Assembly: GCA_900554275.1 (NCBI GenBank)
Contig: USGS01000001.1
Coordinates: forward strand, 5,036-69,035
Direction: 5' to 3'
Source: an uncultured Eubacteriales bacterium
Lineage (GTDB): Bacteria > Bacillota > Clostridia > Oscillospirales > Oscillospiraceae
Length of the DNA: 64,000 bases
The notes below the pieces were generated by a model that was not told the DNA's origin, made no database searches, and saw only the letters and a program-made list of their open reading frames with translations. Positions within the stretch are counted from its first letter, which is position 1, and every line of letters begins with the position of its first letter. The translations under genes and the position numbers were made by a program. Below are positions 1 through 36,931 of this stretch, piece by piece.

Positions 1-290
1 TCAAGCTGCTCAATGACCTCCGCATCGTTTTCCACGTGCAGCGCAAGCCGATAGTTTCTATATAACTCCTTGCGTGCATCGTTGATCCTCTTCACATTTT
101 TAGCCTGATACTTTCGGTTGGCAGCCTTCTGCTTTTCATAGTAGTCCGGGCGACACACCCGCATGATCGTCGCATTGGATACTTTGTACTGAACTGCCAA
201 GGCCGTATACGGAACTCCCGCCTCATGAGCCTCTTTGATCGCCACTTTCTGTTCTTCCGTCAATTTGTGTTCTCGAGCCATAGACTTAGA
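1..290 (-). CDS. Partial HTH-domain protein (resolvase/transposase-type HTH), 5' end only; gene continues beyond window start
   Basis: Reverse translation from ATG (rc of 288-290) gives MAREHKLTEEQKVAIKEAHEAGVPYTALAVQYKVSNATIMRVC...; AAGGAGGA RBS 7 nt upstream; not in ORF track because no stop inside window. Confidence 0.45.
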
Positions 291-459
291 TCCTCCTTGC
301 TTCTTAATGGTTTACTTGATATTATCATATATCTTTATATATGTCAATACCTTTTTCTGCTTTTTTGAAAAAACTTTACAAGGCAGGCGGCTCTGTACTC
401 TTACGGCAGCAGGCGGCACTTGTCTAAGTGCCGCCTGCTGCCATAAAAAGATGTGTCCT

Positions 460-1794
460 TTACCGCTGTTCCCGCTCCGGCCTCCGCGTTTGCTCCCGTT
501 CCGCCGCATATTGTATGGTGCGGATGCTCGTTTGCAGCATTTGCAGCTTACGCCACTCGTCCAGCGCAGCTTCCAATGCAGACTGGTCACAGTCCATCCT
601 GGCGCGGCGGATGGCGGCACGGAGCTCCGCCTCCTTCCATTCGATCTCCTGCGGCGTTTGCAGATCCTGCTCGCGGGCGTATGCCAACCCCTGAAAGGCT
701 TCCGTCTCCGCTTTGTCCGGCGGGCCGAACAGAGCAAGGCATTCCGGCTCGCTATATGCCGCCCGCGGCTTCGGCACGTCTCCCAACAGTAGAAACAAAA
801 CCAGTATCAGCAAGCTGTCCAGTGCACCGCGAGAATGGCCGTATACCTCGCGCCGGGCCTCGTACCACCGGCGGCGGACGCAGCGCACATACGCCCACCA
901 CTGCTGCTCCGCCAGCCGTTCGCGCTCTCGCCGCAGTGCCATCAGGTGCTCTATGTCCGCCCATTCCAGCCCCAGTGTCCGCAGCCGCACCGCCCTGCGG
1001 CCTCCCGGCGGCAGGACGCTGACCGTGTTTCCCCGCCGCTTGAGGGTAATGCCGTAGGCGCGGAGACGGCGCGTCAGTTCTTTGGCGCTGCGGCACTGGG
1101 ACGCCACAGAGGCCAATACATGGCGGAGATACTCGTTCCGTTTTTCGTACCGCTCCCGCCTTCGCTTGGCGGCGATGGCGTTGTTGTCCTTGACCTCCCA
1201 GCCGTGCGTGCGCGTGTAGTCCCGCAGCCAGTCGTTCATGGCCCTCCGCAGCTCCGCACTGTCCTGATGCTTGCCGCCCGCCTTGATCTCACAGGGCAAA
1301 ATGTTCCCCTCGCCATCCCGCATCATCCACTCCCGCTCCGCCCGTGCTCCGGCGCGGACAGAGTTGAGGGAGATGTGGATGTGGTCGTTGTCCGTGTCGC
1401 GATGGACGGCGATCAGGCAGTCATAGCCCTGCAAAAACGCCTTGGCGAAAGCCCGTCCTTCCTCCAAAAGGTCGTCCAGGGATAGCTTGTCCCGATCCGC
1501 CGCCGGATGACTGAGGATATATTCGTGGCTCTTGCGGTCGCCGGGCTTGTTGTTCTTGCCGTAGCGCAGGTTGGTGCGGCGGCAGGCAGATGCCCACCGC
1601 TCCGACGCAGCCTCCGTCCCGTCGGCGGTCAGGTACAATGCGGCGCAATTGCTGCGGGGCTGCATCAAGCCATACTCATCCAAAATCGGTTCGTAATGCC
1701 CGGTGCGGCTGTCCTCCCGATGCCGGCAGGTATAGTACTCCAATACATCTTCATAACGGGCGTTTTTGGAGCTGTTATGCTTAACAATAGCCAT
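460..1794 (-). CDS. Conjugative/mobilisation relaxase (MobA/VirD2-type relaxase-mobilisation nuclease domain)
   Basis: 444 aa; histidine triad HRDTDNDHIHISLNSV (HxDxxxHxH motif III of MOB relaxases); GGAGGT RBS; overlaps downstream MobC-like gene. Confidence 0.8.
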   Translation of the reverse strand: MAIVKHNSSKNARYEDVLEYYTCRHREDSRTGHYEPILDEYGLMQPRSNCAALYLTADGTEAASERWASACRRTNLRYGKNNKPGDRKSHEYILSHPAADRDKLSLDDLLEEGRAFAKAFLQGYDCLIAVHRDTDNDHIHISLNSVRAGARAEREWMMRDGEGNILPCEIKAGGKHQDSAELRRAMNDWLRDYTRTHGWEVKDNNAIAAKRRRERYEKRNEYLRHVLASVASQCRSAKELTRRLRAYGITLKRRGNTVSVLPPGGRRAVRLRTLGLEWADIEHLMALRRERERLAEQQWWAYVRCVRRRWYEARREVYGHSRGALDSLLILVLFLLLGDVPKPRAAYSEPECLALFGPPDKAETEAFQGLAYAREQDLQTPQEIEWKEAELRAAIRRARMDCDQSALEAALDEWRKLQMLQTSIRTIQYAAEREQTRRPEREQR

Positions 1795-2308
1795 CGGCGA
1801 TCTTTACCTCCAACTCCGCCAGCCGCTTTGCCATACGCTCCGCCTGCCGGGCCGCGTGCAGCAGTTCCTCCCACTCCGCCGGGTGCAGCGTCCGCTGTCC
1901 TTCGTTGGGACGGATGGTCATTTTCAGCAGACCGCCAATACGCCCTATATCGGCCTTGAGCAGCGCCAACTCATCCAGCAGGGCAATAGCCAATTCCGTG
2001 TGCATGGAGATCGTGATCCGTTCGGTCAGCGCGGCGCGGCGCAAAAATTCGCTGGCGGACAACTCGCTGCGTTTTACACGCGCCAGGAAAGTGCGGTACT
2101 CGCCGTCGGACATTTTGGTTTTCACGATCCGCTTGCGGACGCTCCGCGGCTTCGCCGGCGGCGAAACAGCCGGCGCTGCGATCTCCGTATGTTCCTTGGG
2201 AGGGGCGATCTCCTCCCGGCTCGGTGGCGGGAGCGATCGCTCCCGCCGCCGGCCAGCATCGGACACCAATGCGTCCAACCCCGGCCTGTGCTGTTCATTC
2301 TCGTGCAT
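1781..2308 (-). CDS. MobC-like relaxosome accessory protein (start chosen at MHENEQ.. with GGGAGGA RBS; ORF extends to 2368)
   Basis: Located immediately upstream of relaxase, 4-codon overlap; C-terminal RFLARVKRSELSASEFLRRAAL-like MobC/RHH segment; start uncertain. Confidence 0.55.
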   Translation of the reverse strand: MHENEQHRPGLDALVSDAGRRRERSLPPPSREEIAPPKEHTEIAAPAVSPPAKPRSVRKRIVKTKMSDGEYRTFLARVKRSELSASEFLRRAALTERITISMHTELAIALLDELALLKADIGRIGGLLKMTIRPNEGQRTLHPAEWEELLHAARQAERMAKRLAELEVKIADGYC

Positions 2309-2401
2309 GGTATTCCTCCCGGGGGTTTGAGGTCTCCCCAGCCGTTGTTCGGCTATCAGGGTACCCAAAAGGGTACCCTGATAGGGAACTTGTCCTCAGT
2401 T

Positions 2402-2791
2402 TTACATACTACCGCTTTCCGCGGCACGCCGCCGGTCCGCATCGTACTTTTCCAGCATTCCATCTTCTTCCGAAATATCCCGCACGCATTCCCAGCCATC
2501 GATCTGTGCGTCTGCACCGACCAGGTAGTAGCATTCGTGGCAAGGTATCTTTTCCGGCCTCAGTGCGTTCCAATGGACGCAGCATTGACAGTTGCCGTGC
2601 AGCAGCTCGTTGGCATTGTGGAGTTTCGCACAGGCTATCCAGTAGCGGTAGGCCAGCACGTGGATATATTTCTCGTCCGTCTGGCGCTTCAGGGTTTTTA
2701 TGTCTTCGGGTGTCAAGCCACTCCTGCGATACTCTGCCAACAGGGTCTTCTCATCCGCCGTCAGGTGGGATGTACGGTTGTTTTTCGTCAT
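2402..2791 (-). CDS. Cysteine-rich VLP-domain protein (mobile-element associated)
   Basis: 129 aa with CxC...HGNCQCCVHW...CHEC cysteine pattern, typical partner of relaxase in Firmicutes ICE/IME; GAGGTGA RBS. Confidence 0.6.
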   Translation of the reverse strand: MTKNNRTSHLTADEKTLLAEYRRSGLTPEDIKTLKRQTDEKYIHVLAYRYWIACAKLHNANELLHGNCQCCVHWNALRPEKIPCHECYYLVGADAQIDGWECVRDISEEDGMLEKYDADRRRAAESGSM

Positions 2792-2804
2792 TTTCGATCA
2801 CCTC

Positions 2805-2990
2805 AAAATTGTTAGTCCGCTGTGCACCGCGGCTAACACCACAATAGTCGTTTTTCCGCGATTTGCAAGAGATTGGCCCATATACGGCGCACGCAAATGG
2901 GATATTTCCATTTGCGGCGGCATTGACCGCCGCAAAAAGCAGCACAGCACCACATAGAAATCGTTCTATGCGGTGCTGTGCTGCTTTTTT
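2805..2990. repeat. Copy A of a ~180-bp conserved promoter/leader module (paralog at 7990-8200); contains 10-bp-arm palindrome (2887-2919) and a strong bidirectional intrinsic terminator hairpin (2933-2990)
   Basis: gttagtccgctgtgcaccgcgg... / cgcacgcaaatgggatatttccatttgcg / aaaaagcagcacagcacc...ggtgctgtgctgctttttt; ~75% identical to 8021-8200. Confidence 0.6.
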
Positions 2991-3097
2991 AAGAAACAAA
3001 TTTGCTTCTCAAGTCAGATCGACTAGATCCGCCGCTTTTGCCATTGCCCCACCCTTCTGCTACAATACTCAAAAATGACCGGGAGGCGTAGCACATC

Positions 3098-3954
3098 ATG
3101 CGGAAGAAATTGGAGATCACGGAGAAGGAATTGGCGCGATTTGCGGGGTATCTGCGGCGGGAGGAGCGGGAAGCATCCACCATCGAATCTTACATGAGGG
3201 CGGCGAGGCAGTTTGCCGCGTGGCTGGATGGCCGCGTGGTGACGAAGGAGCTGGCGGCGGCGTGGAAGGCGCAGCTGCCGGAGCAGGGTTACCGCCCCGT
3301 CAGCGTCAATGCCATGCTGGCGGCGGTAAACAAGCTGTTCGTCTGCATGGGGCGGGAGGACTGCAAGGTGCGGTACCTCAAGCTCCAGCGGCAGATGTTC
3401 CGCAAATCGGAACGGGAGCTGACCCGTGCCGAATACCAGCGGCTGCTGGACGCAGCCCAGACGAGGGGGGACATACGCCTGCTGCTCCTGCTGGAAACCC
3501 TCTGCGCCACGGGCATCCGGGTCAGCGAGCTGCAATACATCACCGTGGAGGCGGCACGAAACGGCGTAGCAGAAATCGCACTGAAGGGCAAAATAAGAAC
3601 TATTCTTCTGCCCACAAAGCTGTGTCGCAAGCTATTGAAATACGCCAAAAAGTGTGGCATCGTCCACGGGCAGATATTCCTGACAAAAAGGGAAACAGGC
3701 TGTCCCGGAAATTCATCTGGGCGGAGATGAAAAAGCTGTGCGAGGCGGCGAAGGTGGCGCGGAGCAAGGTGTTTCCTCACAACCTGCGGGGGCTGTTCGC
3801 CCGGGCATTCTACGCCGCCTGCCGGGATGTGGTGCGGTTGGCGGACGTGCTGGGGCACAGCAGCATCGAGACGACCCGGATCTACCTGCTGTCCACGGCA
3901 AAAGAAAGTGCCCGCCAGCTGGACAGGCTCGGTCTGCTCAGCGGGTGGGCATAA
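3098..3954 (+). pseudogene. Tyrosine site-specific recombinase/integrase (XerC/D-phage integrase family), interrupted by -1 frameshift in A5 tract at 3685-3689
   Basis: N-terminal SAM-like domain in frame of 3098..3730; C-terminal catalytic region (HNLRG...LGHSSIETTRIY, R..H.xR..Y) in frame ending 3954; one extra A would give LTKKGNRLSRKFIW continuous protein. Confidence 0.7.
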
Positions 3955-4270
3955 TTATTATTTTGTAACATAGAAAACGGGCGAAAAATAGAATGATTAT
4001 CCGCGAATGTGCGTTTAACAAAATGGGCGCAGCTGGAAATGGTAGTGCGAAAAACGACAAAACGGCAACGCCGTGTCACTGAGAAATGGCTGGTTTGCTT
4101 GACTTTGTCCACAAAGTGTGGTACGCAACCGTTGGAATTTTGGCACAAACGCACAGGGCTTGTTTTGAAGTGTGTCGGAATAACAATTGCGTATATTTAG
4201 CCGATGAACTTTACGCCACCTGCAAGTGCATCCTTTTGCCAGATCGTCCCCGCAAGCGCCCCCCTGATAC

Positions 4271-4316
4271 GCAGCAGGAGCGCGGCAAAATGCCGCGCTC
4301 CTGCTGTCTTGTTTTA
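4271..4316 (+). terminator. Intrinsic terminator hairpin (gcagcaggagcgcggc-aaaatg-ccgcgctcctgctg + T-tract)
   Basis: 14-bp perfect stem followed by tcttgtttta; lies at 3' end of AT-rich non-coding stretch 3955-4313. Confidence 0.5.
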
Positions 4317-4574
4317 CGCCACAGGCTCTGCCGTCAGGTAGCACATATAGCGCGTTGTGCTCTCCGAATAGCTGAGATTGCTGAAATAGGCGCACTCGCC
4401 GCGGTCGATGAGCCATCCGTCCTCGTAGGGCACAGCCGTGATGCCCAGCAGCGCCGTCATATCGGCATCCGGCGCATCCTTCCCCGCCTCCCACGCTTCG
4501 CACCACTGGCGGATCAGCATCGCGGGCGTGTCCAGGCCGCTGATCACGTTGATGTGCTCCGCTGCCGACACCAT
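4314..4574 (-). CDS. Hypothetical protein (86 aa), last gene of ClpX-like operon
   Basis: ORF in operon arrangement with 4648..5118 and 5102..6229; no recognisable motif. Confidence 0.4.
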   Translation of the reverse strand: MVSAAEHINVISGLDTPAMLIRQWCEAWEAGKDAPDADMTALLGITAVPYEDGWLIDRGECAYFSNLSYSESTTRYMCYLTAEPVA

Positions 4575-4647
4575 CCGGGAGATACACGCTTACGAGGGAA
4601 ACAAAAACGCATGAATTTCTCAAAGTTTTTAGGTTAGACGCAAAACC

Positions 4648-5118
4648 TTATTGCATATCTCTCAGCTTTCCCGCCTCGCTGATTGACATCACGCAGACGA
4701 CCTCCAGCCCTTTCAAAATCCGCGGCATATCCTCATCACTGCGGATGGGGTCATCGGCGGAGTGGTGCTCTGCAAATAGTTCAAAGCGCGTGCCCTGCGG
4801 CAGTTCCGTCAGCTTGAGGAGATAATAAAACGTGCGCTCTCTGGGCGGGCAGCAGTGGAGCAGATAGCTCACGCAGCCCTCCAACCAGCGCTTTGCCCTC
4901 CGCAGCGCAGCACGGCCGGAGCAGGATGCCAGCGAGAACAGCAGCCTGTCGGCGATGTAGTCGGCCATAAGCGGTTTGGACAGCCCCTGTAAATGCTGCG
5001 GCAGCAGGATCGTCAGCGGTGTATCCAGCGCCAGCAGCCTGCGGCGCTGCTGATAGAGCTCATTGTCTACCTTGCGGATAAAATCCTCCGCCTGATGGCG
5101 GTCAAGAGACGTGGCCAT
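4648..5118 (-). CDS. Hypothetical protein (156 aa), overlaps ClpX-like gene stop by 17 nt
   Basis: Translational coupling with upstream clpX-like; no recognisable domain. Confidence 0.45.
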   Translation of the reverse strand: MATSLDRHQAEDFIRKVDNELYQQRRRLLALDTPLTILLPQHLQGLSKPLMADYIADRLLFSLASCSGRAALRRAKRWLEGCVSYLLHCCPPRERTFYYLLKLTELPQGTRFELFAEHHSADDPIRSDEDMPRILKGLEVVCVMSISEAGKLRDMQ

Positions 5119-6229
5119 AGACGTTACCTCCCAGTGTTACAGCGCCGGAGAGCTTGCCCTCCGCCAACGCATACAGCAGCGGCTGCACCAACGCTTCCAC
5201 CGCGCCGTCCAGCCCCCGGGCGCCCGTTCCCTGCACCACAGCCTCACAGGCCAACTGCTCCACCAGTTCATCCGGCAGCTTGAGCCGAACCTTGTGGGCG
5301 CGGAAAAATTTCCTGTACTTCACGAATGCTGAGAGGTTGGATTCAGTCAGGATGCGCCGCATCTGCTCCGTGGTCAACTGCTCCACCGGCACGAACCGAC
5401 CGATGCGGCCCATCAGCTCCCGTTCCATGCCGTAGGCGCAGAAATCCTCGGCGGTGCGCTGAGTGACCGTGGGATGGGACGGCTCGTCCCGCACGAAGCC
5501 GATAGGATCGGCGTATCTCTGTGCATCCCGCATCCTGCCGAACGCGCCGCCGAACAGGAACAGCAGATCGGCGGTGTTGATGGTCGCCCTCTCCGTGGTG
5601 ACCTCCATCCCCTCCACCATCTTCAAAAGCGCGTGCTGCGTCCCCTGACAGTACGATTGACGCCAATCATTACCGTGAGCGGACAGCTTGTCCACCTCAT
5701 CGATGAAAATGATGGCGTGTCGGACTCGAGGGTGCTCCTTGAAGCCCGCCAACAGGTCTGTCACGATGTCCGCCGCGTTTTTCCCGCGATACCCCGTCTC
5801 GGTGATGCCGGTGGCATCCACAGTGAGAAACGGCAGCCCGGCGATCCTGGCTGCCTCACGGATGATAGCCGTCTTGCCGCAGCCGCTGGGTCCATACAGC
5901 AGCAGATTGGTTCGGGGAACGCCGGCATCCCCGTTGGCGCGGAGCATCTGCTTCCAAACTGCCAGCGCCACGGCAGCCTTTGCCTGCTCCTGCCCGATGA
6001 TGGACTTATCCAGTTCCTGAACGATGTGCTGCGGCGTGATAGATGGCGCAGATACAGCCTCCTCCGTGACCTCGTCAGACGCTTCCAAAATATGAAACGA
6101 GGTTTGGAGACAACCGCGGCAGACCATCCTGCCGGTGCTGCCCACCACATGATCGTTGCCGAGGATGTTGATGACGCCCTTGCACAGGGCGCAGCGCGAG
6201 ACGACCGGGGTTCGTTTTTTCTTGCTCAT
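5102..6229 (-). CDS. ClpX-like AAA+ ATPase (ATP-dependent unfoldase paralog) with N-terminal C4 zinc-ribbon
   Basis: CALCKG...CRGC zinc finger; IGQEQAK; Walker A LLYGPSGCGKT; Walker B IIFIDEVDKL; sensor/GYVG-region; AGGAG RBS. Confidence 0.8.
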   Translation of the reverse strand: MSKKKRTPVVSRCALCKGVINILGNDHVVGSTGRMVCRGCLQTSFHILEASDEVTEEAVSAPSITPQHIVQELDKSIIGQEQAKAAVALAVWKQMLRANGDAGVPRTNLLLYGPSGCGKTAIIREAARIAGLPFLTVDATGITETGYRGKNAADIVTDLLAGFKEHPRVRHAIIFIDEVDKLSAHGNDWRQSYCQGTQHALLKMVEGMEVTTERATINTADLLFLFGGAFGRMRDAQRYADPIGFVRDEPSHPTVTQRTAEDFCAYGMERELMGRIGRFVPVEQLTTEQMRRILTESNLSAFVKYRKFFRAHKVRLKLPDELVEQLACEAVVQGTGARGLDGAVEALVQPLLYALAEGKLSGAVTLGGNVYGHVS

Positions 6230-6411
6230 GTGATCACTCCTTATTTCAGAATGATCGGGGGTGGATGTAAAAGACGTTTCTCCTTATTTTCATCATCAAA
6301 CCTCCATGCAAAGTACTGATATGCCGAATGGCACGACACCCGTTTTCACACGCGGTGCTTTTCTCTGTGGTCGGCGCATAGAAAAAAAACGCACCTCTCC
6401 GTCTATTTTAT

Positions 6412-6447
6412 GTCACAAATAATATTCATTTTTGTGACTTTGTCAAT
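6412..6447 (-). promoter_or_regulatory. Consensus sigma-A promoter (TTGACA-16-TATTAT) for ClpX-like operon, overlapped by 8-bp-arm inverted repeat GTCACAAA...TTTGTGAC (putative operator)
   Basis: minus-strand reading ttgacaaagtcacaaaaatgaatattatttgtgac ~190 nt upstream of ATG at 6229. Confidence 0.5.
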
Positions 6448-6650
6448 AGCGGATTTGCTGTTTCTGTACTTTTTGCGTCAATTCGTGCACCATGCATATA
6501 TATCACCTGCATTTTGCACGCCATAATTGGACGTTTTGAACATATTTCATTGGTACGTCACACAAAACAAACGCAGGCGACTCCCGCTTACAACGGAGAG
6601 CCGCCTGCTGCTCGATGTTCATTTCAGCCTGCATTCGATCGACGCACGGA

Positions 6651-7292
6651 CTATCGCCCCGCCCTGCCATAGCAGTCGCATATAAGCTCAATAATGGGGC
6701 GCAGTCTCGGAGGCACAAGAGAGAGTTTCTCTATCAGGTCCTTTTTGACCTCGGGCGCAAGCGTTCGGGACAGCTCCGCAATCTCGTCGATGGTAATCCT
6801 GTGCCTGTCCAGATCCGAAAGCGCGCTGATAACAACAGCGCCCTCATCCGAGAGGCCATCAAACAGCTTTGCCGCGGAATGAACCAGCAGCACCTCATGA
6901 CCGGGGGCATATTCGACACGTGTCTTAGGGCCTGTGCTCAGGTACTTCGGCAGCTTCGGGTCTTCATCGGACAGACCGATCCTGCGCCTCGCAAGCTCTG
7001 TAGCCGGAAGTATCCTCCAGTGGTTTCTCCGGGCAAGGGCCTGCGCCACAGCTTCATGAGACGGCAGCGCAGGGACATCGTCACACTGTTTCGGGTTCAG
7101 CCGATACAGGCCCATGCAGATACGCTCTATACGCTCACTCTGCGCAAGGCGGGACAGCGCCTTGCGGACCGCATCATAGCTGCCCAGCGCATCGAAATCC
7201 TCCACAGCAAACACCGCATCGTGCGGCTTGGCATACATAAACGAAATGATCTCCCGTTCACACGCGTACAGCTGCTCCTGCATCGTCCCCAC
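6651..7292 (-). CDS. DUF6088-like (AbiEi-type wHTH) family protein
   Basis: 213 aa; pattern R..R.G.Y...P......A.ALA....W.I.P....A..LGLS...P..Y...GP.. resembling DUF6088/AbiEi-like proteins common on Firmicutes mobile elements; assignment from memory only. Confidence 0.45.
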   Translation of the reverse strand: MGTMQEQLYACEREIISFMYAKPHDAVFAVEDFDALGSYDAVRKALSRLAQSERIERICMGLYRLNPKQCDDVPALPSHEAVAQALARRNHWRILPATELARRRIGLSDEDPKLPKYLSTGPKTRVEYAPGHEVLLVHSAAKLFDGLSDEGAVVISALSDLDRHRITIDEIAELSRTLAPEVKKDLIEKLSLVPPRLRPIIELICDCYGRAGR

Positions 7293-7561
7293 CTCCGTTC
7301 GTACTTGTCACAAATTATACTGGTTTTCGCAGAATTGTCAAGTTTGGCGCATTTCGGCTATTCCATTTCGAGGCAAGCTACCCACGTATCTTGCCCCACT
7401 ATGCTGCAACCGCACGGCTCATGCAACAGGCTGCCGGCCCACATTTGGACAATCAGTGAATGATCAGTCGCCGATCCCTTGCACCAACATGGGACAGATA
7501 TACCACATGTAGCCATCCCCCACAGCCAGGGAGGACAGACACTCTCCCCGCATCCATAGTA

Positions 7562-7927
7562 TCAAGACAGAGGACAGATCCCCTTCCACGTGAGAGAAAA
7601 CCGATACTCATTAGGCTTGCGGAGAGCCTTCATGCTCCGCACTTCGATCCATCCTCCGGCCTCAAGCTCCCGGATATACCGGCAGAGCGACGAGTGCGGG
7701 ATGCCGTACTTCTTCGCCGCACTCCGGGGCAGGCGAAATTCGCGCCGCGGCCCGGCCTCCATCGCCATACACAGGAAACAGTATCGCGCTCCGTGGGAAA
7801 GCCGCTGAAACCGATACGACAGCAGCAGCGTATTGCCGAGCTGGATGAAACGCTTTTCATCGCAGTCTACCCGCGCCGTCAGCCACGGCCGGAGCGTCGC
7901 TCCGGCTTTTCTTCTGGAAGCGCTCAT
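7562..7927 (-). CDS. Small HTH-domain protein
   Basis: 121 aa; RLPRSAAKKYGIPHSSLCRYIRELEAGGWIE helix-turn-helix segment; GGAGGTGA RBS. Confidence 0.45.
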   Translation of the reverse strand: MSASRRKAGATLRPWLTARVDCDEKRFIQLGNTLLLSYRFQRLSHGARYCFLCMAMEAGPRREFRLPRSAAKKYGIPHSSLCRYIRELEAGGWIEVRSMKALRKPNEYRFSLTWKGICPLS

Positions 7928-7989
7928 CTCGTCACCTCCCGTGCCGCAGTGCCTGCATCTTTCGCCGCCGGCATATAAGTGTTATTGGT

Positions 7990-8200
7990 GTTATTGGTCA
8001 TGTGTGACCACCTCCATAGTGTAAGTCCGCTGCGCGCCGCGGCCAATAACACATTAGCCCATATTTCACCATAAATCAATGGATCTGCCCGTATATGGCG
8101 CACGCAAATGGGATCTTTCCATTTGCGTCAGTGTCCTATATGCAAAAGCAGCACAGCCCCGCGTGTTCCACGCGATGCCGTGCTGCTTTGTCGTGACAAC
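7990..8200. repeat. Copy B of conserved promoter/leader module; includes remnant 5' end of a second Cys-rich-VLP-like gene (minus-strand mini-ORF 7925-8001, MTNNTNNTYMPAAKDAG..), palindrome 8099-8128 and terminator-like hairpin 8146-8195
   Basis: gtaagtccgctgcgcgccgcgg.../cgcacgcaaatgggatctttccatttgcg/ aaaagcagcacagcc..gtgctgcttt; N-terminus MTNNTNN.. parallels MTKNNRTSHL of 2402..2791. Confidence 0.55.
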
Positions 8201-8309
8201 GGAAGTCTTCAGTCCCCGTTCGCAGATTGACGATAACAAACTATGCAGATGTCAGACTACACCAACGCCGCATGAAGCACTGCCGCTAACATATTGCTTC
8301 CTCTCCGCG

Positions 8310-9473
8310 TCATGTAAGCTTAGTAAAGTTCAGTTCATCCATCTGGTCTGCCAGCCAGTCCATAGCCTCGGTTTCGTTGGAGAAGGAAGAGTCGAAGATA
8401 ACAAAGTCGTTCTCACTGTAAGTCAGGTGGCCGTCATCGCCCATCATGCAGTCGGGGTATACAACAAAGATGACGTCCTCATAGGGCTCATCGTCCCAAG
8501 GATTGTCAAGTACGACCTTGGCAACGCCGATGATGCCGCAGTACCCGCTAAAACCGTGGGTCATATCAAAGAAGTAAGTGCCAGGCATCTTGGGCTCAAA
8601 GTAATACAGAGACCAGAACTCGGAATCCAGGACGGGCATGTCTTTGGTGAGAATGTCCTCGGCAGCATAAGACAGAGCGGAAGACATAGTCAACTCTTCA
8701 AAACGGGTACGCTCGGAAACGGACAGCCCGTCAGAGGGGCGGAAAAAGTCCTTCAGGCCGGAGACAGTATATGTCTTACTGCACTGCTCGGGGACAGTAT
8801 AGCCCAAAGAAGCAAAATACTGCTGGTCGAAAACGGCAGTCAGGGTGATTTCATCGCCGTTGGACAGGTTGTAGTTATTGGCGAAGCTATAGGTCACACC
8901 CTTATACATCGCATCATCAGAGACCAGGCCGACAATGGCCTCGCCACCGCCAGAGGCACCGATGAGGGCAACGGAAATGACGTCCTCGGAGAAGGGGTCA
9001 AAAGGCAGGCCGTCAGCCAGGCCTTCCACGGTATAGGTGATCTTGCCGCCGCGCAGCTCGAAGTCCAGCTTCTCATTGGTAGGGTTATCGAAGCTGACGG
9101 TCAGCGTCACCTTGTCGCCGTTGGACAGGTTGTCGGACTTGTCTGCCACCACAGAGACTCCCTCCAGAGCGGCCCAGATCTTCTCGGTCTTCAACAGGTT
9201 CTCCTCGCTGAAAAGGGCTTCAACATCCTTATCGTTCTTGACGTCGATGCCGGCGATCTTCTGATACACGGAGTAGCTGTCAAAGGAATACTCCAAATGA
9301 CCATATCCGTCTGCGCCGGATACGGCATCGATACTCACGTAATCTGTCAGGTCAATACTCTTGCCGCTGCAGGCGGTCAAGGTCAGCGCCGCCGCCATCA
9401 ACAGCAGGGACAGGCAAATAGTTCGGAAATTCGTGTGTTTCATAATAGTCTCTCTCCTATTGTTTTTATTCAC
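8310..9473 (-). CDS. Secreted lipoprotein (signal peptide + lipobox LTAC)
   Basis: MKHTNFRTICLSLLLMAAALTLTACSG; 4-nt overlap with upstream sigma-fusion gene. Confidence 0.7.
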   Translation of the reverse strand: MNKNNRRETIMKHTNFRTICLSLLLMAAALTLTACSGKSIDLTDYVSIDAVSGADGYGHLEYSFDSYSVYQKIAGIDVKNDKDVEALFSEENLLKTEKIWAALEGVSVVADKSDNLSNGDKVTLTVSFDNPTNEKLDFELRGGKITYTVEGLADGLPFDPFSEDVISVALIGASGGGEAIVGLVSDDAMYKGVTYSFANNYNLSNGDEITLTAVFDQQYFASLGYTVPEQCSKTYTVSGLKDFFRPSDGLSVSERTRFEELTMSSALSYAAEDILTKDMPVLDSEFWSLYYFEPKMPGTYFFDMTHGFSGYCGIIGVAKVVLDNPWDDEPYEDVIFVVYPDCMMGDDGHLTYSENDFVIFDSSFSNETEAMDWLADQMDELNFTKLT

Positions 9474-11164
9474 CCCTCATAGGGCCGCCATATCCATTCG
9501 ATGTTGTCCAAGATTGTATCGTACTGCTCGATCATCGCCGTATATGTGTTCTGCGTTTCGGGCGTAAATTGGACGTCGGTGGGACGGCTGGCGACGAATT
9601 GCCGGATGATGCCGCTGGCGGGGTGTGCGTATGTGCCGAGGTACGTGTAGTCGGGCCAGTGCAGATAGTCCGTGCTGTCAGGGCCAAACAGCGTGACAGA
9701 AAATAATTCGCCCGCGCCTGCGGCATAGCTTTCGACCTCATACACGGTGTAGTACTCCCGCAGGCCGTCATCGCTGAAATTGTTGTCAATAATGACCTTA
9801 CCCTCCCAATCCGCCGGGAAATGGAGGATAAGCTCCACCATCTCAACAGTAAAGTCGCTTTTGGGCGTGAACTCGTTGGGCTTCAATTCCAGCCGCTCGG
9901 CGGTTTTGACAAAGGTGTCGCCGTCTGTTTCGCCCGGGAAATAGTAATAATCCTCGTAATCGGCATCCATTCGGTCTTTATAAAACTGTTCTGCCTTACC
10001 GACATAAGAGATACCGGGACGCCCCATACAGCGAAGGTAGGTATCATTGATGAGATAGATTGAATCGTAATAGCTGCCGACATCGCCGACCAGCCGAAGG
10101 CCGTCATCGTCATAGGCGTAGAACTGGGCATCCGTCAGCCACTCCGCTGTCCCGGGATTGTTGGCTGTCAGAAGCTCAGGGATACTGTCCTTCTCCAGGT
10201 CAAAGGTGGTGTAATACTTGATCTCCAAGCCGCTGTCCGTGACACCTCGCCGGAGCAATTCTTCATAAGCAGCGTATGCCTCCGCCGCCTGTTCTTCCAC
10301 CGACACTGCCGTTTGCACGACAGCATCCGACACATCGACAGCTCTGTCGACGACTGCATTTTTTGCCGCGGCTGCGCCGCCTGCGACCAGGCCTGCCGCC
10401 AGCACACCTGCGGCGATTTTGACCGCCAAACCGCCCGCGGCCTTGCCGGTGACCGCAGCCGCCGCGCCCGAAGCAACCACATCGGTTGCCGTGGCCGCGG
10501 CAGCGCCCGCCGCCGTAAGCCCGGCGGGCAGCGGCATCGCCTCGGCCTCCTGCCGCAGCAGCAGGGTCAGCAGCGCCATAGGTGCGAGGCCGTACAGCTT
10601 CGTGTCCTGCTTTTCCAGCGCTTCCACCTTGGACTTGACCTTCCGCCGCCCATAGTTCAGACGGCTTTTTACCGTGCCCTCTGACACCTGCAGCGCCTGG
10701 GCGATCTGTGACACAGACAGTTCATCCCGATAATACAGCAACAGACACAGCTTCTGATCCTCCGGCAGTCCGTCGATAATCTCCGCCACCAGGCGCACCG
10801 TCTCCTGATGCTCCAGCCGCACCTCCGGCAGATTCTCCTCCCGGTCGTCCGCCCAATCCGGCGCTGGGGCATCGTCCTTTTGCAGCTCGGTGAACAGGGC
10901 AGGTTTTTTCTTCTTCAGATAGTCCCGGCACTTGTTGGCCACGATCATATATAGCCACGAGGGGAATTTCTCCGCCTCCTTCAGCTGCGACAGTCTCCCA
11001 AGGGCGGCCAGGTACGCCTCCTGCGTCAAGTCCTCCGCGTCCTGCGAATTGCCGCAGACCTTCAGCGCCACGAAGTACACCTCCCGACAGGTGGCGTTAT
11101 AGAGCTCCTCCCACGCGGCAGTGTCCCCCTGTACGGCGCGAGGAACAGTTTTCGCCCAGTTCAC
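9470..11164 (-). CDS. ECF (sigma-70 family) sigma factor fused to a transmembrane segment and ~330-aa extracytoplasmic C-terminal domain (single-chain sigma/anti-sigma-like)
   Basis: Region 2 (DLTQEAYL..FPSWLYMIVANKCRDYLKKKK) and region 4 (LPEDQKLCLLLYYRDELSVSQIAQALQVSEGTVKSRLNYGRRKV), then Ala/Gly-rich hydrophobic stretch, then acidic/aromatic-rich domain. Confidence 0.75.
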   Translation of the reverse strand: MNWAKTVPRAVQGDTAAWEELYNATCREVYFVALKVCGNSQDAEDLTQEAYLAALGRLSQLKEAEKFPSWLYMIVANKCRDYLKKKKPALFTELQKDDAPAPDWADDREENLPEVRLEHQETVRLVAEIIDGLPEDQKLCLLLYYRDELSVSQIAQALQVSEGTVKSRLNYGRRKVKSKVEALEKQDTKLYGLAPMALLTLLLRQEAEAMPLPAGLTAAGAAAATATDVVASGAAAAVTGKAAGGLAVKIAAGVLAAGLVAGGAAAAKNAVVDRAVDVSDAVVQTAVSVEEQAAEAYAAYEELLRRGVTDSGLEIKYYTTFDLEKDSIPELLTANNPGTAEWLTDAQFYAYDDDGLRLVGDVGSYYDSIYLINDTYLRCMGRPGISYVGKAEQFYKDRMDADYEDYYYFPGETDGDTFVKTAERLELKPNEFTPKSDFTVEMVELILHFPADWEGKVIIDNNFSDDGLREYYTVYEVESYAAGAGELFSVTLFGPDSTDYLHWPDYTYLGTYAHPASGIIRQFVASRPTDVQFTPETQNTYTAMIEQYDTILDNIEWIWRPYEG

Positions 11165-11493
11165 TCCTGCGCCTCCGCTTCCTCCGGGGCACGCAGTCGG
11201 ACGACGGCCCGGATCAACGCGATAGGATAGGCGACCCAGCCCGTGATCATGGCCACCACCAGCCGCAGCATATAGAAGATGATCATGACAGGCAAACTTC
11301 CCACCAAGCCAAAGGTGATGACCTTACCACTGAGCTGCCAGCCGTAGGGTACACCGGCAAAAAAGATGGCAAAGAGCAGCACGCCCCACCATTCCTTGTC
11401 GCCGCTGCTGGTGGCAAGAATGACACCTACCACCACGCCGATCAGGCCCTTAATGATGAGCTTTTTCAGTTCTTCTTTTCTCGTGTTCATTTT
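11161..11493 (-). CDS. Small integral membrane protein (3 TM), start at MNTRKEEL (GGGAGGA RBS); ORF track extends to 11622
   Basis: Hydrophobic helices; ATGA overlap with sigma gene start. Confidence 0.5.
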   Translation of the reverse strand, partial: KMNTRKEELKKLIIKGLIGVVVGVILATSSGDKEWWGVLLFAIFFAGVPYGWQLSGKVITFGLVGSLPVMIIFYMLRLVVAMITGWVAYPIALIRAVVRLRAPEEAEAQE

Positions 11494-11715
11494 GTTTCCT
11501 CCCGTTTCTCCTCTGCTTTGTTTGTGTTGTCCCAACCTCTGGGGAATTGAAGCGATTGAAACAGTGCTGCCAGCGCTTCCCGGATAAGCTGACCCAGCCG
11601 GTCCATATAGACGTACCTCCATCTCTGTGATGCCTATAAGACGAGCACGGGTCTATGACGGTTTTATGAAATAGAAAAACTTTTTTAGTTTCCAAATTCC
11701 GCCACCGTCAAGCGT

Positions 11716-11790
11716 ATTGACCAGTATAGCGGTCAATATCTAAACCGAGTGTAGCATACAATAGCCTCAGTTGCAACCAATACTGGTCAA
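11716..11790. promoter_or_regulatory. 11-bp inverted repeat TTGACCAGTAT...ATACTGGTCAA (plus internal TTGACC-N8-GGTCAA) in divergent promoter region upstream of XRE gene
   Basis: seen directly at 11716-11726 and 11780-11790. Confidence 0.35.
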
Positions 11791-11811
11791 AAATTTGCCT
11801 GAGGTGAGAGA

Positions 11812-12063
11812 ATGGAACAGAAAATCAGACGTGACCGCAATATGGGCGATAATCTGCGGCGGCTGCGGAAAACACACAAGCTGTCACAGGAGAAGCTGTG
11901 CGCCGAATTGCAGCGGCGTGGCTGCGACATCGGGCGCACGACCTACGCCAAGTATGAGTCCGGTGAGCTGAACATCCGCGCCAGTGTGCTTATCGAGCTG
12001 CGGAGCATTTACGACTGCGCGTATGAGGAATTCTTTACGGGGCTGGAGATGCGGAACGAGTAA
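11812..12063 (+). CDS. XRE-family HTH transcriptional regulator
   Basis: 83 aa; LRRLRKTHKLSQEKLCAEL...TTYAKYESGE; GAGGTGAGAG RBS. Confidence 0.75.
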   Translation: MEQKIRRDRNMGDNLRRLRKTHKLSQEKLCAELQRRGCDIGRTTYAKYESGELNIRASVLIELRSIYDCAYEEFFTGLEMRNE

Positions 12064-12136
12064 CGCGCCTCCCGGCATCCTCTTTCCTTTCGGATGCGCC
12101 CATAATGCAGAAATACGCGCAGCGATCTCCAACAAA

Positions 12137-12175
12137 CTGAGCCGCGGCCAAATAGCCGCGGCTCAGTTTTGCACT
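12137..12175 (+). terminator. Intrinsic terminator (ctgagccgcggc-caaata-gccgcggctcag + TTTT)
   Basis: 12-bp perfect stem and T-tract downstream of XRE gene. Confidence 0.55.
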
Positions 12176-12190
12176 GCGCCTTCCAGAACC

Positions 12191-12222
12191 GCACGCAAAT
12201 AGAAATTTCCCATTTGCGTGCG
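12191..12222. promoter_or_regulatory. Copy C of palindromic operator GCACGCAAAT-N11-ATTTGCGTGC, ~20 bp upstream of -35 of promoter (tgacgt-16-tataat) for 12341 gene
   Basis: same 10-bp arms as in copies at 2887-2919 and 8099-8128, same position relative to a promoter. Confidence 0.5.
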
Positions 12223-12340
12223 CCTAAAACGCCGTAAGCTAGTGACGTCCGAAGTCCTCACCCGTATAATATAGCCAAATGCAGCGCTGTGTAATTTATC
12301 CTACAAATGGCAATACTATCCAGTACAGGGAGGGTACAAA

Positions 12341-12589
12341 ATGGAACTCGACATTAAAAAGGATCAGGGCATCGCTCTGATCTGGCTGACTCGGGCAGAG
12401 TCCGCAGACCCCGCCGTCAGTGAACATCTGAAGCCGATCTACGCAGAGTGCCGCGCACAGGGGCTGATGCCTGTCGTCATGCACTCCGGCAGCGGAGATC
12501 TCTACGCCAACACCCGCGATCTGCTGGTCGATACCCGCCGCCGTCAGGCGGAGAAGGCGGTGCGGGCAGAGCGGGCGGCCTCACGCTGA
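12341..12589 (+). CDS. Hypothetical small protein (82 aa)
   Basis: ORF downstream of predicted promoter; no recognisable domain. Confidence 0.4.
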   Translation: MELDIKKDQGIALIWLTRAESADPAVSEHLKPIYAECRAQGLMPVVMHSGSGDLYANTRDLLVDTRRRQAEKAVRAERAASR

Positions 12590-12716
12590 GAATATAGGGA
12601 GGCCGATGGGCCTCCCTATATCACATTTGGCCTTGCATACCGCCGCAGCGTATGATACAATGTAGTCTATAATCAGATTGCATTATCTAAACAAAATTGG
12701 TAGGTCGAGGTGTGCT

Positions 12717-13727
12717 ATGGAACAGAAAATTTCGGAAACCAGTGAGATCCTGCTGTATCAAAACGGCGACGACAAGGAGTACATCCGCGTTATCTTTCAA
12801 GATGAAAATTTTTGGCTGACACAGGCCGGTATGGCAGAGCTGTTTGACTCCAGCAAATCCAACATCAGCGAACACCTGACACATATCTTCGATGAGGAAG
12901 AACTTGATAAAGCCGCCTGCATGAGAAAATTCGGAATTTCCGAATTTTCTACGAAACCCACCCACTTCTACAACCTCGACGCCATCATCGCCGTCGGCTA
13001 TCGCGTGAATTCCAAAAAGGCCACGCGCTTCCGCCAGTGGGCGACGAGGACGCTGAAAGAGTACATCCAAAAGGGCTTTGTGCTCAATGACGAGCTGATG
13101 AAAAACGGCCACCCCTTCGGCAAGGATTACTTCGAGGAACTGCTGGAGCGCATACGTGAGATCCGCGCCAGCGAGCGCCGGGCCTATCAGAAAATCGCAG
13201 ATGTCTTCGAGCAGTGCAGCTACGACTACGACAAGAACAGCGAGACCACGAAAGCCTTTTACGCCTTCGTACAGAACAAGCTGCATTATGCCGTCACCGG
13301 CAAAACCGCCGCGGAGCTGATCTCCGAACGGGCCACGCTGGACAGCCCCACTATGGGTCTGACTAACTGGAAAGGTGCGCCGGACGGAAAAATTCTGAAA
13401 AGCGACACGCTGGTGGCAAAGAACTATCTGAGTGAAAAGGAACTGTCCCGTCTGAATCGCTTGGTGACCATGTTCATCGACTATGCCGAGCTGATGGCGG
13501 AGGATGAACAGTTGATGTCCATGCAGGACTGGCTGGAGGAGACGGATCGCTTCCTGACCAACAATCGCCGTCAGGTACTGGAGAGCAAAGGACACATCTC
13601 TCGAGATGCAGCCATGAAGAAAGTCGGTGCGATTTACGATGAATTCCGCAGGAAGCAGGACGCGGAATACATCTCCGAGTTCGACCGCGAGATAGCAAAA
13701 TATCTGAAAGGCGGTGAGACTCAATGA
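12717..13727 (+). CDS. RhuM-family virulence/Fic-DOC-associated protein
   Basis: YQNGDDKEYIRVIFQDENFWLTQAGMAELF... characteristic RhuM N-terminus; stop overlaps recombinase start (ATGA). Confidence 0.7.
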   Translation: MEQKISETSEILLYQNGDDKEYIRVIFQDENFWLTQAGMAELFDSSKSNISEHLTHIFDEEELDKAACMRKFGISEFSTKPTHFYNLDAIIAVGYRVNSKKATRFRQWATRTLKEYIQKGFVLNDELMKNGHPFGKDYFEELLERIREIRASERRAYQKIADVFEQCSYDYDKNSETTKAFYAFVQNKLHYAVTGKTAAELISERATLDSPTMGLTNWKGAPDGKILKSDTLVAKNYLSEKELSRLNRLVTMFIDYAELMAEDEQLMSMQDWLEETDRFLTNNRRQVLESKGHISRDAAMKKVGAIYDEFRRKQDAEYISEFDREIAKYLKGGETQ

Positions 13728-15892: not shown

Positions 15893-15904
15893 GGGACAGC
15901 AAAA

Positions 15905-15940
15905 CACCGCCCGCCCGGGAGACCCGGGCGGGCGGCGGTT
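15905..15940. terminator. Bidirectional intrinsic terminator with 26-nt palindrome gcccgcccgggagacccgggcgggcg (identical copy at 26704-26730)
   Basis: perfect GC-rich stem, flanked by A/T runs on both sides. Confidence 0.6.
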
Positions 15941-15943
15941 TGC

Positions 15944-16651
15944 TTATTTCAGGGAGTAGGCTTTTATCATCTTCCTGATTTCCTCCGGTGAATTGTACAT
16001 CATCACATCAATGATGGAAAGGCCCGGCTCAAAGCGGCCAATGCCCTGCGTATCCGGCAGCAACTCAGGCTGAAGAAATTCCAGTTTGATCCCTGCCTGC
16101 CGGTATTTTGACTTGTCAAAAAACGCTTCGCCTCCGGGTGCATTGACGTATTCATCCGCTCCCAATGTCCTGCATATCTCCAGCGCCCATTCATCTGGCT
16201 CACAATCACTTGGAACATTCAATCCCATTTGAGAGAAAATGTCCCAATCCAAATCCAGGCCCATGTACTTGCACGACTCTACCACACTTGCAACACTCAT
16301 CTCGACCAGCGAGTCCGTCTCCCTGTCGATCACGCTGCGGACGATCTCCATCGCCTCCCGATAGTACGGCGCCCGCTTTTTATATACCTCCAGCTGGGCC
16401 AGCAGCTTCTGCCGCCAATCGGTACTGTTATTGATGTGCATATCGCAAATAGCCGTTTTCTGCGGGACCTTTACCACCGGGACAGAAATATACGTCGATC
16501 CCTCTGCGATGTTGATGATCCTGTTCCTGTTCATCCAGCCGCGGCGTTCAAACTGCGGCGTATTGAAGAAAATAAATTTGTCACAGGCCGCTATCAGCTG
16601 AAAATAACCGATATACGGGAAAAAGTACGGCTGCATGATCCCTAACTTCAT
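15944..16651 (-). CDS. WbqC-family protein (polysaccharide biosynthesis)
   Basis: MKLGIMQPYFFPYIGYFQLI N-terminus typical of WbqC-like family. Confidence 0.75.
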   Translation of the reverse strand: MKLGIMQPYFFPYIGYFQLIAACDKFIFFNTPQFERRGWMNRNRIINIAEGSTYISVPVVKVPQKTAICDMHINNSTDWRQKLLAQLEVYKKRAPYYREAMEIVRSVIDRETDSLVEMSVASVVESCKYMGLDLDWDIFSQMGLNVPSDCEPDEWALEICRTLGADEYVNAPGGEAFFDKSKYRQAGIKLEFLQPELLPDTQGIGRFEPGLSIIDVMMYNSPEEIRKMIKAYSLK

Positions 16652-30200: not shown

Positions 30201-30221
30201 TCATCAAGAAAGGAGGCGCGT

Positions 30222-31914: not shown

Positions 31915-31927
31915 GGAGGTCCGCGCC

Positions 31928-32986: not shown

Positions 32987-33009
32987 CCCGTCTCTCCCAC
33001 CGCGCTGTG

Positions 33010-33053
33010 TTGTCATTCCGAGCCAGTGACCGATGTCACTGGCGTGGGAATCC
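33010..33053. repeat. REP-like 44-bp intergenic element with 8-bp-arm hairpin ccagtgac-cgat-gtcactgg (second copy at 38094-38137)
   Basis: tgtcattccgagccagtgaccgatgtcactggcgtgggaatccg vs cgtcattccgagccagtgaccgacgtcactggcgtgggaatccg. Confidence 0.6.
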
Positions 33054-33089
33054 GTTCCCCCATCCCACTCCGAACCGAGGTGACGCCCC

Positions 33090-34298: not shown

Positions 34299-34377
34299 AC
34301 GAGTTGTATCTCGCCCCGGCAACCCTTTCAAGCGGGCGGTTACATAGATAAAAAAACACAAAAGGAGAAAAAACAAA

Positions 34378-34797: not shown

Positions 34798-34895
34798 CCC
34801 CCTCCCCCTCAACCCATGTACCCCTATATCACCTGCACCACAGAAGCCGAAGGGTTGCGGCTTCTGTGGTGCAGGCATCAGAAAGGATCGCCGCC

Positions 34896-35693: not shown

Positions 35694-35704
35694 AGGCGCA
35701 CCCC

Positions 35705-36919: not shown

Positions 36920-36931
36920 GGAGGTCTCGCC

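Follow-up and report, generated by a model that had tools for sequence, protein, structure and literature searches.

Introduction

A large serine recombinase and a Mob relaxase are combined in the Tn4451/Tn4453-type mobilisable transposons and in other integrative mobilisable elements (IMEs) of Firmicutes. Sporulation genes, in turn, can be interrupted by intervening elements, among them skin (sigK), SPbeta (spsM), gin (gerE), vfbin and vrin (PMC4191935, PMC5595907). For mobilisation regions of the RSF1010/R1162 type a nick consensus, NcgtNtaAgtGCG|CcCTta, has been described (PMC6008420). Here we analysed a 64,000-nt stretch of DNA (the window), in which positions 1-13727, lying left of a large serine recombinase gene, had been taken by a first-pass annotation for cargo made up of one or two nested IMEs. 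We favour, with a probability of about 0.7, the reading that these positions are most of the interior of one IME, carried by an Oscillospiraceae-type genome and inserted by its serine recombinase into the sporulation gene spoVT, and not a nested set. Elements that pair a large serine recombinase with a relaxase form a known class of IMEs; the present one differs in the spoVT target, the relaxase lineage, the accessory genes and the in-frame recombinase-SpoVT fusion. Negative coordinates denote positions left of the window start.

Results

The serine recombinase gene runs in frame into spoVT

Within 1-16000 one clear gene was chosen per interval by third-position GC and length of the open reading frame (ORF), and families were assigned by scanning the region's proteins with Pfam, NCBIfam and PADLOC profiles. 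The plus-strand gene at 13724-15892 encodes a protein of 722 aa in which Resolvase, Recombinase and Zn_ribbon_recom domains are followed by SpoVT_C. At 15440-15472 its ORF passes through ...AATGTCATCAGCAACGGCGACCCGT|TGGAGATCTACACC... and turns into SpoVT, beginning with GDPLEIY, so that spoVT is read from about codon 34 to its stop; the last ~150 residues of the integrated recombinase are SpoVT. This crossing point, inside spoVT, is the attachment site attR and the right end of the element. Its core, GGCGACCCGT, corresponds to spoVT codons ~31-33 and is read as Gly-Asp-Pro in both the recombinase and spoVT.

Both counterparts of this junction were found in relatives. Contig L008 carries a 99%-identical recombinase (P0068) of 606 aa that is without the SpoVT part and contains AATGTCATCAGCAACGGCGACCCGTCACAGATGACATT, the dyad typical of attP, with arms AATGTCATC...GATGACATT; the recombinase gene region of this attP-form sibling is 98.6% identical to that of the window. 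The reciprocal attL is present in L079 and L109, where the first 33 spoVT codons and the core lead into the recombinase's native 26-codon tail. Joining the attL half of L109 to the attR half of the window in silico yielded a SpoVT of 175 aa, which covered positions 1-180 of the TIGR02851 profile with 204 bits versus a cut-off of 235.9. The attB expected after excision reads ...CGCGAGGGCGACCCGTTGGAGATCTAC....

Since 119 of the 120 best recombinase homologues carry the SpoVT_C domain, and 553 of 600 matches in a pattern search of a metagenome collection were recombinase relatives, the spoVT-recombinase family is very common, mostly in the human gut. The organism names attached to the relatives are Oscillospiraceae or Oscillibacter. 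Searches of a paper library returned no description of spoVT as an integration target or of a recombinase-SpoVT fusion family, and the element family appears undescribed.

Two plus-strand genes precede the recombinase. The first encodes p82 (12341-12589), a small protein that matched no Pfam, PADLOC, PHROG or NCBIfam profile and whose place in front of the recombinase gene, or of the RhuM-recombinase pair, is kept throughout the family; among 35 distinct sequences, an alignment of 16 has 12 invariant columns. p82 is the candidate recombination directionality factor. The second (12717-13727) encodes a RhuM-family protein (PF13310, E 4e-101), which also matches the PADLOC candidate defence family PDC-S05 (1e-135).

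The mobilisation operon and the family backbone

The genes listed by the first-pass annotation (relaxase, split integrase, DUF6088/AbiEi-like, ClpX-like, extracytoplasmic function (ECF) sigma fusion, XRE and RhuM) are all found where it had placed them, and two of its labels, both in the mobilisation (mob) operon, are wrong. This operon is encoded on the minus strand. The relaxase (460-1794) falls in the MobA/VirD2 superfamily, with a match to PF03432 (E 1.4e-10) and the histidine triad HRDTDNDHIH. Its best NCBIfam match, TraI/MobA(P) (TraI_MobP_relax), is weak (E 3.9e-6, 26 bits versus a cut-off of 250). The relaxase had no match among PLSDB plasmids or in PDB, and a GTDB scan found only relatives of 53-60% identity, in metagenome-assembled genomes of Oscillospiraceae. 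The gene before it (1781-2308), labelled MobC-like, encodes a NikA-like ribbon-helix-helix relaxosome accessory protein of 175 aa, a length shared by the homologues on other contigs. It matches PF21983 (E 1.2e-8) and not Pfam MobC (PF05713), with further weak NCBIfam matches to MbpA, TraJ and MobA; the homologue in L079, unlike the window copy, matches both PF21983 and PF05713. The first gene of the operon, cys129 (2402-2791), encodes an orphan of 129 aa with seven Cys. Labelled a Cys-rich VLP protein, it has no Pfam match even at E<=10 and hence is not PF14194; NCBIfam and PHROG gave no match either. Only seven relatives of cys129 were found among 1.84 billion representative proteins, and in relatives the gene always stands ahead of NikA-relaxase. 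Because it holds orphan proteins and is without plasmid relatives, the relaxase operon should be a useful new MOB lineage for mobilome annotation.

Downstream of the relaxase, a hairpin with 21-nt arms (401-446) separates its stop codon from the promoter (347->319) of hth118 (1-281, minus strand), which encodes a small helix-turn-helix (HTH) protein with a weak HTH_38 match; the gene starts at 281 and runs off the left edge, with 25 codons still to come. The contig L001 extends 1.7 kb further left and shows hth118, then p433 (433 aa, no family match), a terminator and, facing them, the 3' end of a gene whose product is membrane-anchored. A structure prediction for P0121, a homologue of p433, from a 25-sequence alignment was uninformative (pLDDT 59.8).

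Relaxase genes of this kind recur across the family. The complete 10.7-kb relative L079, with both att sites, has the order attL, GNAT, a 205-aa protein, DUF6088, AbiEii, AAA_25, NikA/MobC, PF03432 relaxase, p82, RhuM, recombinase, attR, and at ~30 further loci AAA_25-NikA-relaxase stands directly upstream of p82. Every related element with enough upstream sequence has NikA/MobC and a PF03432 relaxase beside the p82-(RhuM)-recombinase core. L079 and the ~30 loci thus place the relaxase module in the family backbone, and the elements are therefore IMEs. A relaxase of the window type (84-85% identical) lies beside an 84% identical recombinase in L029, L111, L113 and L114, where it is divergent from p121-p82-recombinase, and L015 has a 55% relaxase relative in the canonical position. 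None of these five contigs carries the tyrosine recombinase of the window.

Genes of a type IV secretion system or its coupling protein were identified neither in 1-15892 nor in L079. RhuM, XRE and large serine recombinases are common in prophages and the left part of the element is unseen, so a fragment of an integrative and conjugative element or a defective prophage has to be weighed against an IME. We regard this origin as highly improbable: besides the missing transfer genes in these 16 kb and in the complete relative, a PHROG search of the orphan proteins (cys129, p156, the lipoprotein and p82) gave no phage family match, a scan of viral contigs for p433 found no match and recovered nothing of the window end, and the rest of the window is chromosomal (see below).

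A 31-nt motif in front of three operons

The palindromic 31-nt motif CGCAAATRGRAANWTYCCATTTGCGTGCGCC occurs at 2886-2916 (minus), 8097-8127 (minus) and 12194-12224 (plus) and nowhere else in the 64 kb, three matches versus none in 100 shuffles. A distance of 17 nt separates each copy from a promoter-like -35/-10 pair downstream of it, which heads the mob operon, the p121-DUF6088-ClpX operon or the p82-RhuM-recombinase operon. In block B1 (2811-2916, minus) the motif is followed by a weak promoter, TTGCAA-16-TATTGT (2868-2841), and a 5' leader hairpin (2837-2811). Block B2 (8021-8127, minus) has its promoter at 8079-8051 and its leader hairpin at 8047-8021, and it heads the operon of p121 (7562-7927, minus), a small putative winged-helix protein with weak HTH_psq and MarR_2 matches. 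In the region 12134-12270 (plus) a terminator-like hairpin (12134-12169) precedes block B3, with its promoter GTGACG-17-TATAAT at 12242-12270. B1 and B2 are direct repeats 5.2 kb apart, and the longer segments around them, 2779-2987 and 7989-8189, are ~72% identical. Beyond the motifs of B1 and B2 lie hairpins, a bidirectional terminator with 26-nt arms (2934-2989) and the terminator of the ECF/lipoprotein operon (8145-8189), respectively, whose stems are homologous. An Rfam scan gave only miRNA-type matches, on hairpin 2934-2989, which we judged spurious. The hairpin at 12134-12169, for its part, resembles the terminator after p433 in L029, a likeness that hints that the mob unit was once co-directional upstream of p82-recombinase, as in the canonical order.

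The motif may be an operator shared by the three operons and, in B1, may double as an origin of transfer (oriT). Its right half, CATTTGCGTGCG, is invariant in relatives. The motif core, GTGCGCC, resembles part of the RSF1010-type nick consensus, a mere lead of 7-8 matching bases; the candidate relaxase substrate carries CCCATTTGCGTGCGCCGTAT.

Three other roles for the motif were considered and rejected. If units moved by relaxase-mediated recombination at a nick in the motif, breakpoints should fall at GCGTGCG|CC; they lie ~15-45 nt upstream of CATTTGCGTGCG. A 9-7-9 palindrome serving as the core site of a tyrosine recombinase does not agree with a left arm that, together with ~12 nt upstream, is common to the contexts and varies without compensation. 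An ECF-type promoter within the motif was dismissed by eye for its short spacing.

That promoter modules are duplicated, as first noted, is correct, and there are two sets, that of the 31-nt motif and a set of the form TTGACA-16-TATnAT. The second consists of TTGACA-16-TATAAT/TATTAT promoters with a TTTGTGACA box in front of the DUF6088 gene (7341->7314) and the ClpX-like gene (6446->6419). In the latter copy (6411-6446; partner 7306-7341) a palindrome, GTCACAAA...TTTGTGAC, surrounds the -10 box. It is likely an operator, perhaps for the AbiEi-like protein.

A lone tyrosine recombinase and variable unit borders

A Xer-like tyrosine recombinase gene, recognised by Pfam, lies on the plus strand at 3098-3954, behind a promoter at 3038-3066. 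The frameshifted integrase that had been noted is real: alignment to an intact 285-aa copy in L109 shows a single 1-nt deletion at ~3685, and the same frameshift recurs in contigs of several other samples. The two genes share 92.7% nucleotide identity and their codons differ by 45 synonymous versus 13 non-synonymous changes. Homology between them is limited to the gene and its promoter (window 3057-3963), and in L109 the gene is not part of the spoVT element but precedes the start of spoVT by 2.2 kb. Conversely, the mob unit occurs without the tyrosine recombinase in L023, L025, L029, L108 and L110-L115, and L109 has the tyrosine recombinase without the mob unit. We found no direct repeats flanking the tyrosine recombinase or a discrete nested unit, and a search for tRNA genes as integration target found none. 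Judged from its sequence and contexts, the tyrosine recombinase gene stands alone and lost its function recently; it does not serve as integrase to a separate element nested here. To its right follows a GC-poor non-coding spacer (3955-4313) with a terminator hairpin at 4271-4307. This spacer and the other AT-rich stretch, 6230-6650, have a GC of 0.479 and 0.442, respectively, versus 0.563 for the whole region, in agreement with the earlier description.

The arrangement of the units differs among relatives. In the window and in L116-L122 the mob unit is followed directly by hth118-p433, DUF6088-ClpX-p156 stands behind an inverted p121, and the ECF unit lies between B2 and B3. In the contigs that we call type II (L023, L110, L112 and L115) the order is B-cys-NikA-relaxase-DUF6088-ClpX-p155-hth-p431, followed by XRE/membrane/ECF/lipoprotein; here the DUF6088-ClpX-p156 block occupies the relaxase/hth118 intergenic space, the place of hairpin 401-446 in the window. 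Type I contigs (L029, L111, L113 and L114) have this L023-type unit order adjoining p121-p82-recombinase. The right flank of type II contigs is the same as that of type I, and type II contigs may be deletion derivatives. The order XRE/membrane/ECF recurs after p433 in L023, L110 and L111. In relatives of the 84% type p121 is on the opposite strand, directly upstream of p82-recombinase.

Units start with a promoter common to the homologue elsewhere and end at a hairpin. Homology of the mob unit with other contexts stops near the hairpin 2934-2989, at ~2907-2940; breakpoints beyond p433 are at -1462, -1523 and -1558, and on the other side at ~2907-2940 or ~15-45 nt upstream of the invariant core CATTTGCGTGCG. 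This pattern looks like general recombination and deletion between modules, not like site-specific nesting. The window order is common to relatives of at least 97% identity from at least six samples, which shows that it did not arise in assembly; samples that contain the strain include ERZ28663260 and ERZ27242575.

These data bear on the nested arrangement, according to which a small IME of mob operon and tyrosine integrase, and perhaps a second one of p121-DUF6088-ClpX, had inserted into the cargo of the serine-recombinase element and decayed. The tyrosine recombinase pseudogene does adjoin the mob operon directly, B1 and B2 are direct repeats, contig L002 spans exactly window 2907 to -1514, and the mob unit stands beside unrelated genes in L025 and in type II contigs. 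In sample ERZ18739868, moreover, the mob-unit contig has 9.9x coverage versus 14.9x for the recombinase-side contig, and assemblies break on both sides of the integrase segment. We nevertheless consider nesting unlikely, because the recombinase family universally has relaxase modules, the recombinase of type I relatives is accompanied by the same mob operon but by no tyrosine integrase, the intact integrase of L109 matches as a gene alone and outside the element, and the unit borders are context-dependent, with neither fixed breakpoints nor flanking repeats in the comparison with related sequences nor a tRNA. What stands of the original interpretation is that the region is variable mobile DNA and that the large serine recombinase on its right marks the element end; nested IMEs inside it are not supported. 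The region is not conserved and syntenic in all relatives, synteny being confined to those of at least 97% identity.

Independent assemblies (L001/L005, L116/L117 and L119/L002) repeatedly break at ~6714-6721, ~1.7 kb left of the window start, and at ~4212 and 2907, L119 ending at ~4212, inside the GC-poor spacer. Together with the coverage difference, the repeated breaks suggest strain polymorphism or a repeat at unit borders.

The state of the window copy

We return to the single spoVT-sited IME and to the findings that weigh against it. The window's own attL was not recovered: the SpoVT N-terminus is absent from the window and from the 1.7-kb extension to its left. Patterns expected for this attL are GGCGACCCGTCACAGATGACATTGG and, as an ORF, MKATGIVRRIDDLGRVVIPKEIRRT[ML]RIREGDP followed by SQ[IM]TLA[RW]WERFC. 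Homology to the attL-proximal DUF4143 segment ends at -1558, and four independent assemblies end ~1.7 kb left of the window start. The mob operon of the window is inverted relative to the canonical family order, and in the type II contigs no recombinase is present within 10 kb of the mob/ClpX unit; the unit could have a life of its own. Finally, the left arm of the 31-nt motif varies without compensation in relatives, and the motif is missing both around the relaxases of 53-60% identity and in front of the p82 gene of other members of the family.

Exact-protein look-ups with the relaxase, cys129 and the ClpX-like protein likewise returned only contigs that end ~1.7 kb left of the window. That all assemblies end near -1700 suggests a repeat there. 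With attL unrecovered, the DUF4143 homology lost and the assemblies ending, this copy may be no longer excisable. In L109 (4542-10004) IS insertions (with IS3-, IS21- and IS256-type and DUF772 transposases) have cut the spoVT element down to attL-DUF4143-truncated p433, a case of complete decay in which spoVT is still split.

Such observations raise the alternative of a fixed, non-mobile remnant that lost its attL, decays in place and splits spoVT permanently, its genes being relics or domesticated cargo. Consistent with decay are the frameshift in the tyrosine recombinase, the internal deletion in p86 (see below) and the loss of attL-proximal homology at -1558; in type I relatives p431 is followed by a surface-protein gene and citrate-lyase genes, and no attL is seen, and L108, L109 and L114 have truncated relaxase or p433 genes and insertion sequences. 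Against it, L008 captures in attP form a sibling whose recombinase region is 98.6% identical, several samples share the same uninterrupted ORFs for the relaxase, the NikA-like protein, the ClpX-like protein and the recombinase, and the 45 synonymous versus 13 non-synonymous differences put the tyrosine recombinase under purifying selection until recently. On balance we consider a fixed remnant somewhat unlikely.

Accessory genes of the element

The DUF6088/AbiEi-like winged-helix regulator is encoded at 6651-7292 on the minus strand, behind its promoter at 7341->7314, and matches PF19570 (E 3.5e-17) and the PADLOC AbiEi model (2.7e-35). No AbiEii nucleotidyltransferase was found among the region's proteins with Pfam and PADLOC, the AbiEi-like protein standing without one; the DUF6088 homologue of L079 has a canonical AbiEii toxin as its partner. 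Next comes a ClpX-like AAA+ paralogue identified by Pfam (5102-6229, minus), with its own promoter at 6446->6419, whose gene is overlapped by that of p156 (4648-5118, minus). The operon of a ClpX paralogue proposed earlier is thus real. The paralogue has an N-terminal C4 zinc ribbon (CxxC...CxxC), Walker A/B motifs, a GYRG pore loop and an IGF loop (PIGFV). Aligned to ClpX 6vfs, it is shorter at the insert preceding the IGF loop, and it scores below the equivalog cut-offs (NF003745, 201 bits versus 359; TIGR00382, 168 versus 371). Its relatives form >120 clusters at 85-86% identity in gut metagenomes, and the ClpX-like unit is thus abundant; in relatives the gene is always found with DUF6088 and p156. 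p156 belongs to no family in Pfam, NCBIfam, PADLOC or PHROG, and its single-sequence AlphaFold2 model is poor (pLDDT 53.9). The last gene, p86 (4314-4574, minus), is a copy of a 168-aa protein from which 82 internal codons have been lost in frame; L116, a 97-98% identical contig, has the complete gene.

Between B2 and B3 lies the ECF unit. Its operon, on the minus strand, starts with a gene for a small membrane protein of 109 aa (11161-11490), whose homologue p108 also precedes the ECF gene in L023. The sigma factor fusion (9470-11164) was described correctly: Sigma70_r2 and r4_2 (TIGR02937, 1.6e-31) are followed by a long, ~380-aa C-terminal extension consisting of an Ala/Gly-rich, apparently membrane-spanning stretch and a C-terminal domain of ~300 aa. 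The operon ends with a lipoprotein gene (8310-9443; 377 aa, lipobox LTLTAC, no family match), which contains an internal repeat, 8827-8872 and 9088-9133, at a spacing of 261 nt that suggests tandem domains. Divergent from the operon is the gene of an XRE-family HTH regulator (11812-12063, plus; PF01381, E 2e-8). L008 is without window 8150-12140, and an insertion of the ECF module was considered and rejected: the 85-bp filler in L008 encodes a remnant of the lipoprotein (...VEGLADG), and L008 is therefore a deletion derivative.

The chromosomal surroundings

To the right of 15892 all genes are chromosomal and include polysaccharide genes, a type IV pilus cluster and others. The polysaccharide locus just 3' of spoVT varies among near-identical strains (window 15944-16651 versus L116 12228-13397), and the window has a WbqC-family gene at the spot where L116-L119 have an ATP-grasp gene. 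At 30193-38076, 38718-45032 and 50168-57850 lie the type IV pilus cluster, with PilB/PilC/PilM-like proteins, and two giant ORFs of 2104 and 2560 aa, the first of them with a GLUG motif.

Discussion

The comparisons above point to a single IME whose interior, as far as its sequence can tell, is a mosaic of self-contained transcription units with their own promoters and terminators. The mob unit would run from B1 through cys129, the NikA-like protein and the relaxase to hth118 and p433. It would be joined by the lone tyrosine recombinase, by p121 under B2, by DUF6088 and by the ClpX-like protein, p156 and truncated p168 under their TTGACA promoters, by the XRE gene and, opposite to it, the membrane protein, ECF fusion and lipoprotein, and by p82, RhuM and the recombinase under B3. 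In the life cycle that we propose, the serine recombinase integrates the element at GGCGACCCGT in spoVT codons ~31-33, an event of which the window shows the right junction only, and excises it as a circle, p82 probably acting as directionality factor. An oriT would then be nicked by the relaxase together with the NikA-like protein, with block B1 as the candidate, and a co-resident conjugative element would supply the coupling protein and the pore. Through the thrice-repeated motif a single DNA-binding protein would control the operons for mobilisation, for the ClpX-like protein and for excision, and the ECF/lipoprotein unit and RhuM would be cargo.

A bolder version can be formulated. The motif would act as a single switch that couples spoVT excision, mobilisation and the ClpX paralogue, the latter acting with the AbiEi-like regulator and p156/p168 to turn the element on or off by targeted proteolysis; as its IGF loop is kept, host ClpP could serve the paralogue as docking partner. 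With the in-frame recombinase-SpoVT fusion added, the family would then represent a new type of mobilisable element that splits a sporulation gene and decides whether gut Oscillospiraceae can sporulate. We think such a switch quite improbable.

As to its significance, the cargo region itself is ordinary mobile-DNA mosaicism, and the value of its analysis lies mainly in the corrected annotation, one IME in place of nested ones. The analysis also exposed a very abundant human-gut family of spoVT-sited serine-recombinase IMEs, which comprises hundreds of protein clusters. Were excision regulated, or SpoVT permanently lost, this family would bear on why many gut Oscillospiraceae sporulate poorly and would extend 'regulated gene integrity' to a forespore gene.

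Among described systems, the Tn4451/Tn4453-type transposons resemble the element in their end-located large serine recombinase, the attP circle, a relaxase of their own with an upstream cis site and the absence of pore genes; dependence on a helper element, which we infer for the window element, would be shared as well. The window element differs in its PF03432 relaxase with a NikA-like partner and no plasmid relatives, in its fixed spoVT target, in being much larger and more mosaic, and in carrying accessory ClpX-like, AbiEi-like, ECF sigma and RhuM genes instead of resistance genes.

The intervening elements of sporulation genes are alike in having a recombinase gene at the edge, by the 3' fragment of the target, in their insertion into a sporulation gene and in a frame that is restored, here in silico. 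spoVT is a forespore-expressed gene in B. subtilis, which argues against the classical mother-cell excision scheme; the targets of the known intervening elements are mother-cell genes. The window element also differs in carrying a relaxase and in a recombinase ORF that runs in frame into the target (722 aa integrated, 606 aa in attP).

With the RSF1010/R1162 mobilisation regions the locus shares a relaxase with small accessory proteins and a cis site between or upstream of mob promoters. It departs from them in that only 7-8 bases match, the motif is found three times, including before non-mob operons, and the best, weak match of the relaxase is MOBP-type TraI. AbiEi models cover the whole DUF6088 protein, which has its own promoter with a palindromic box, as in AbiE (type IV toxin-antitoxin/abortive infection) systems, but the window is without AbiEii, and the 3' partners are the ClpX paralogue and p156. 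That paralogue, finally, is like the ClpX of ClpXP in its zinc-ribbon N-domain, AAA+ module, aromatic pore loop GYRG and IGF loop, and unlike it in its sub-cut-off score, its location in a mobile element and its operon with orphan proteins.

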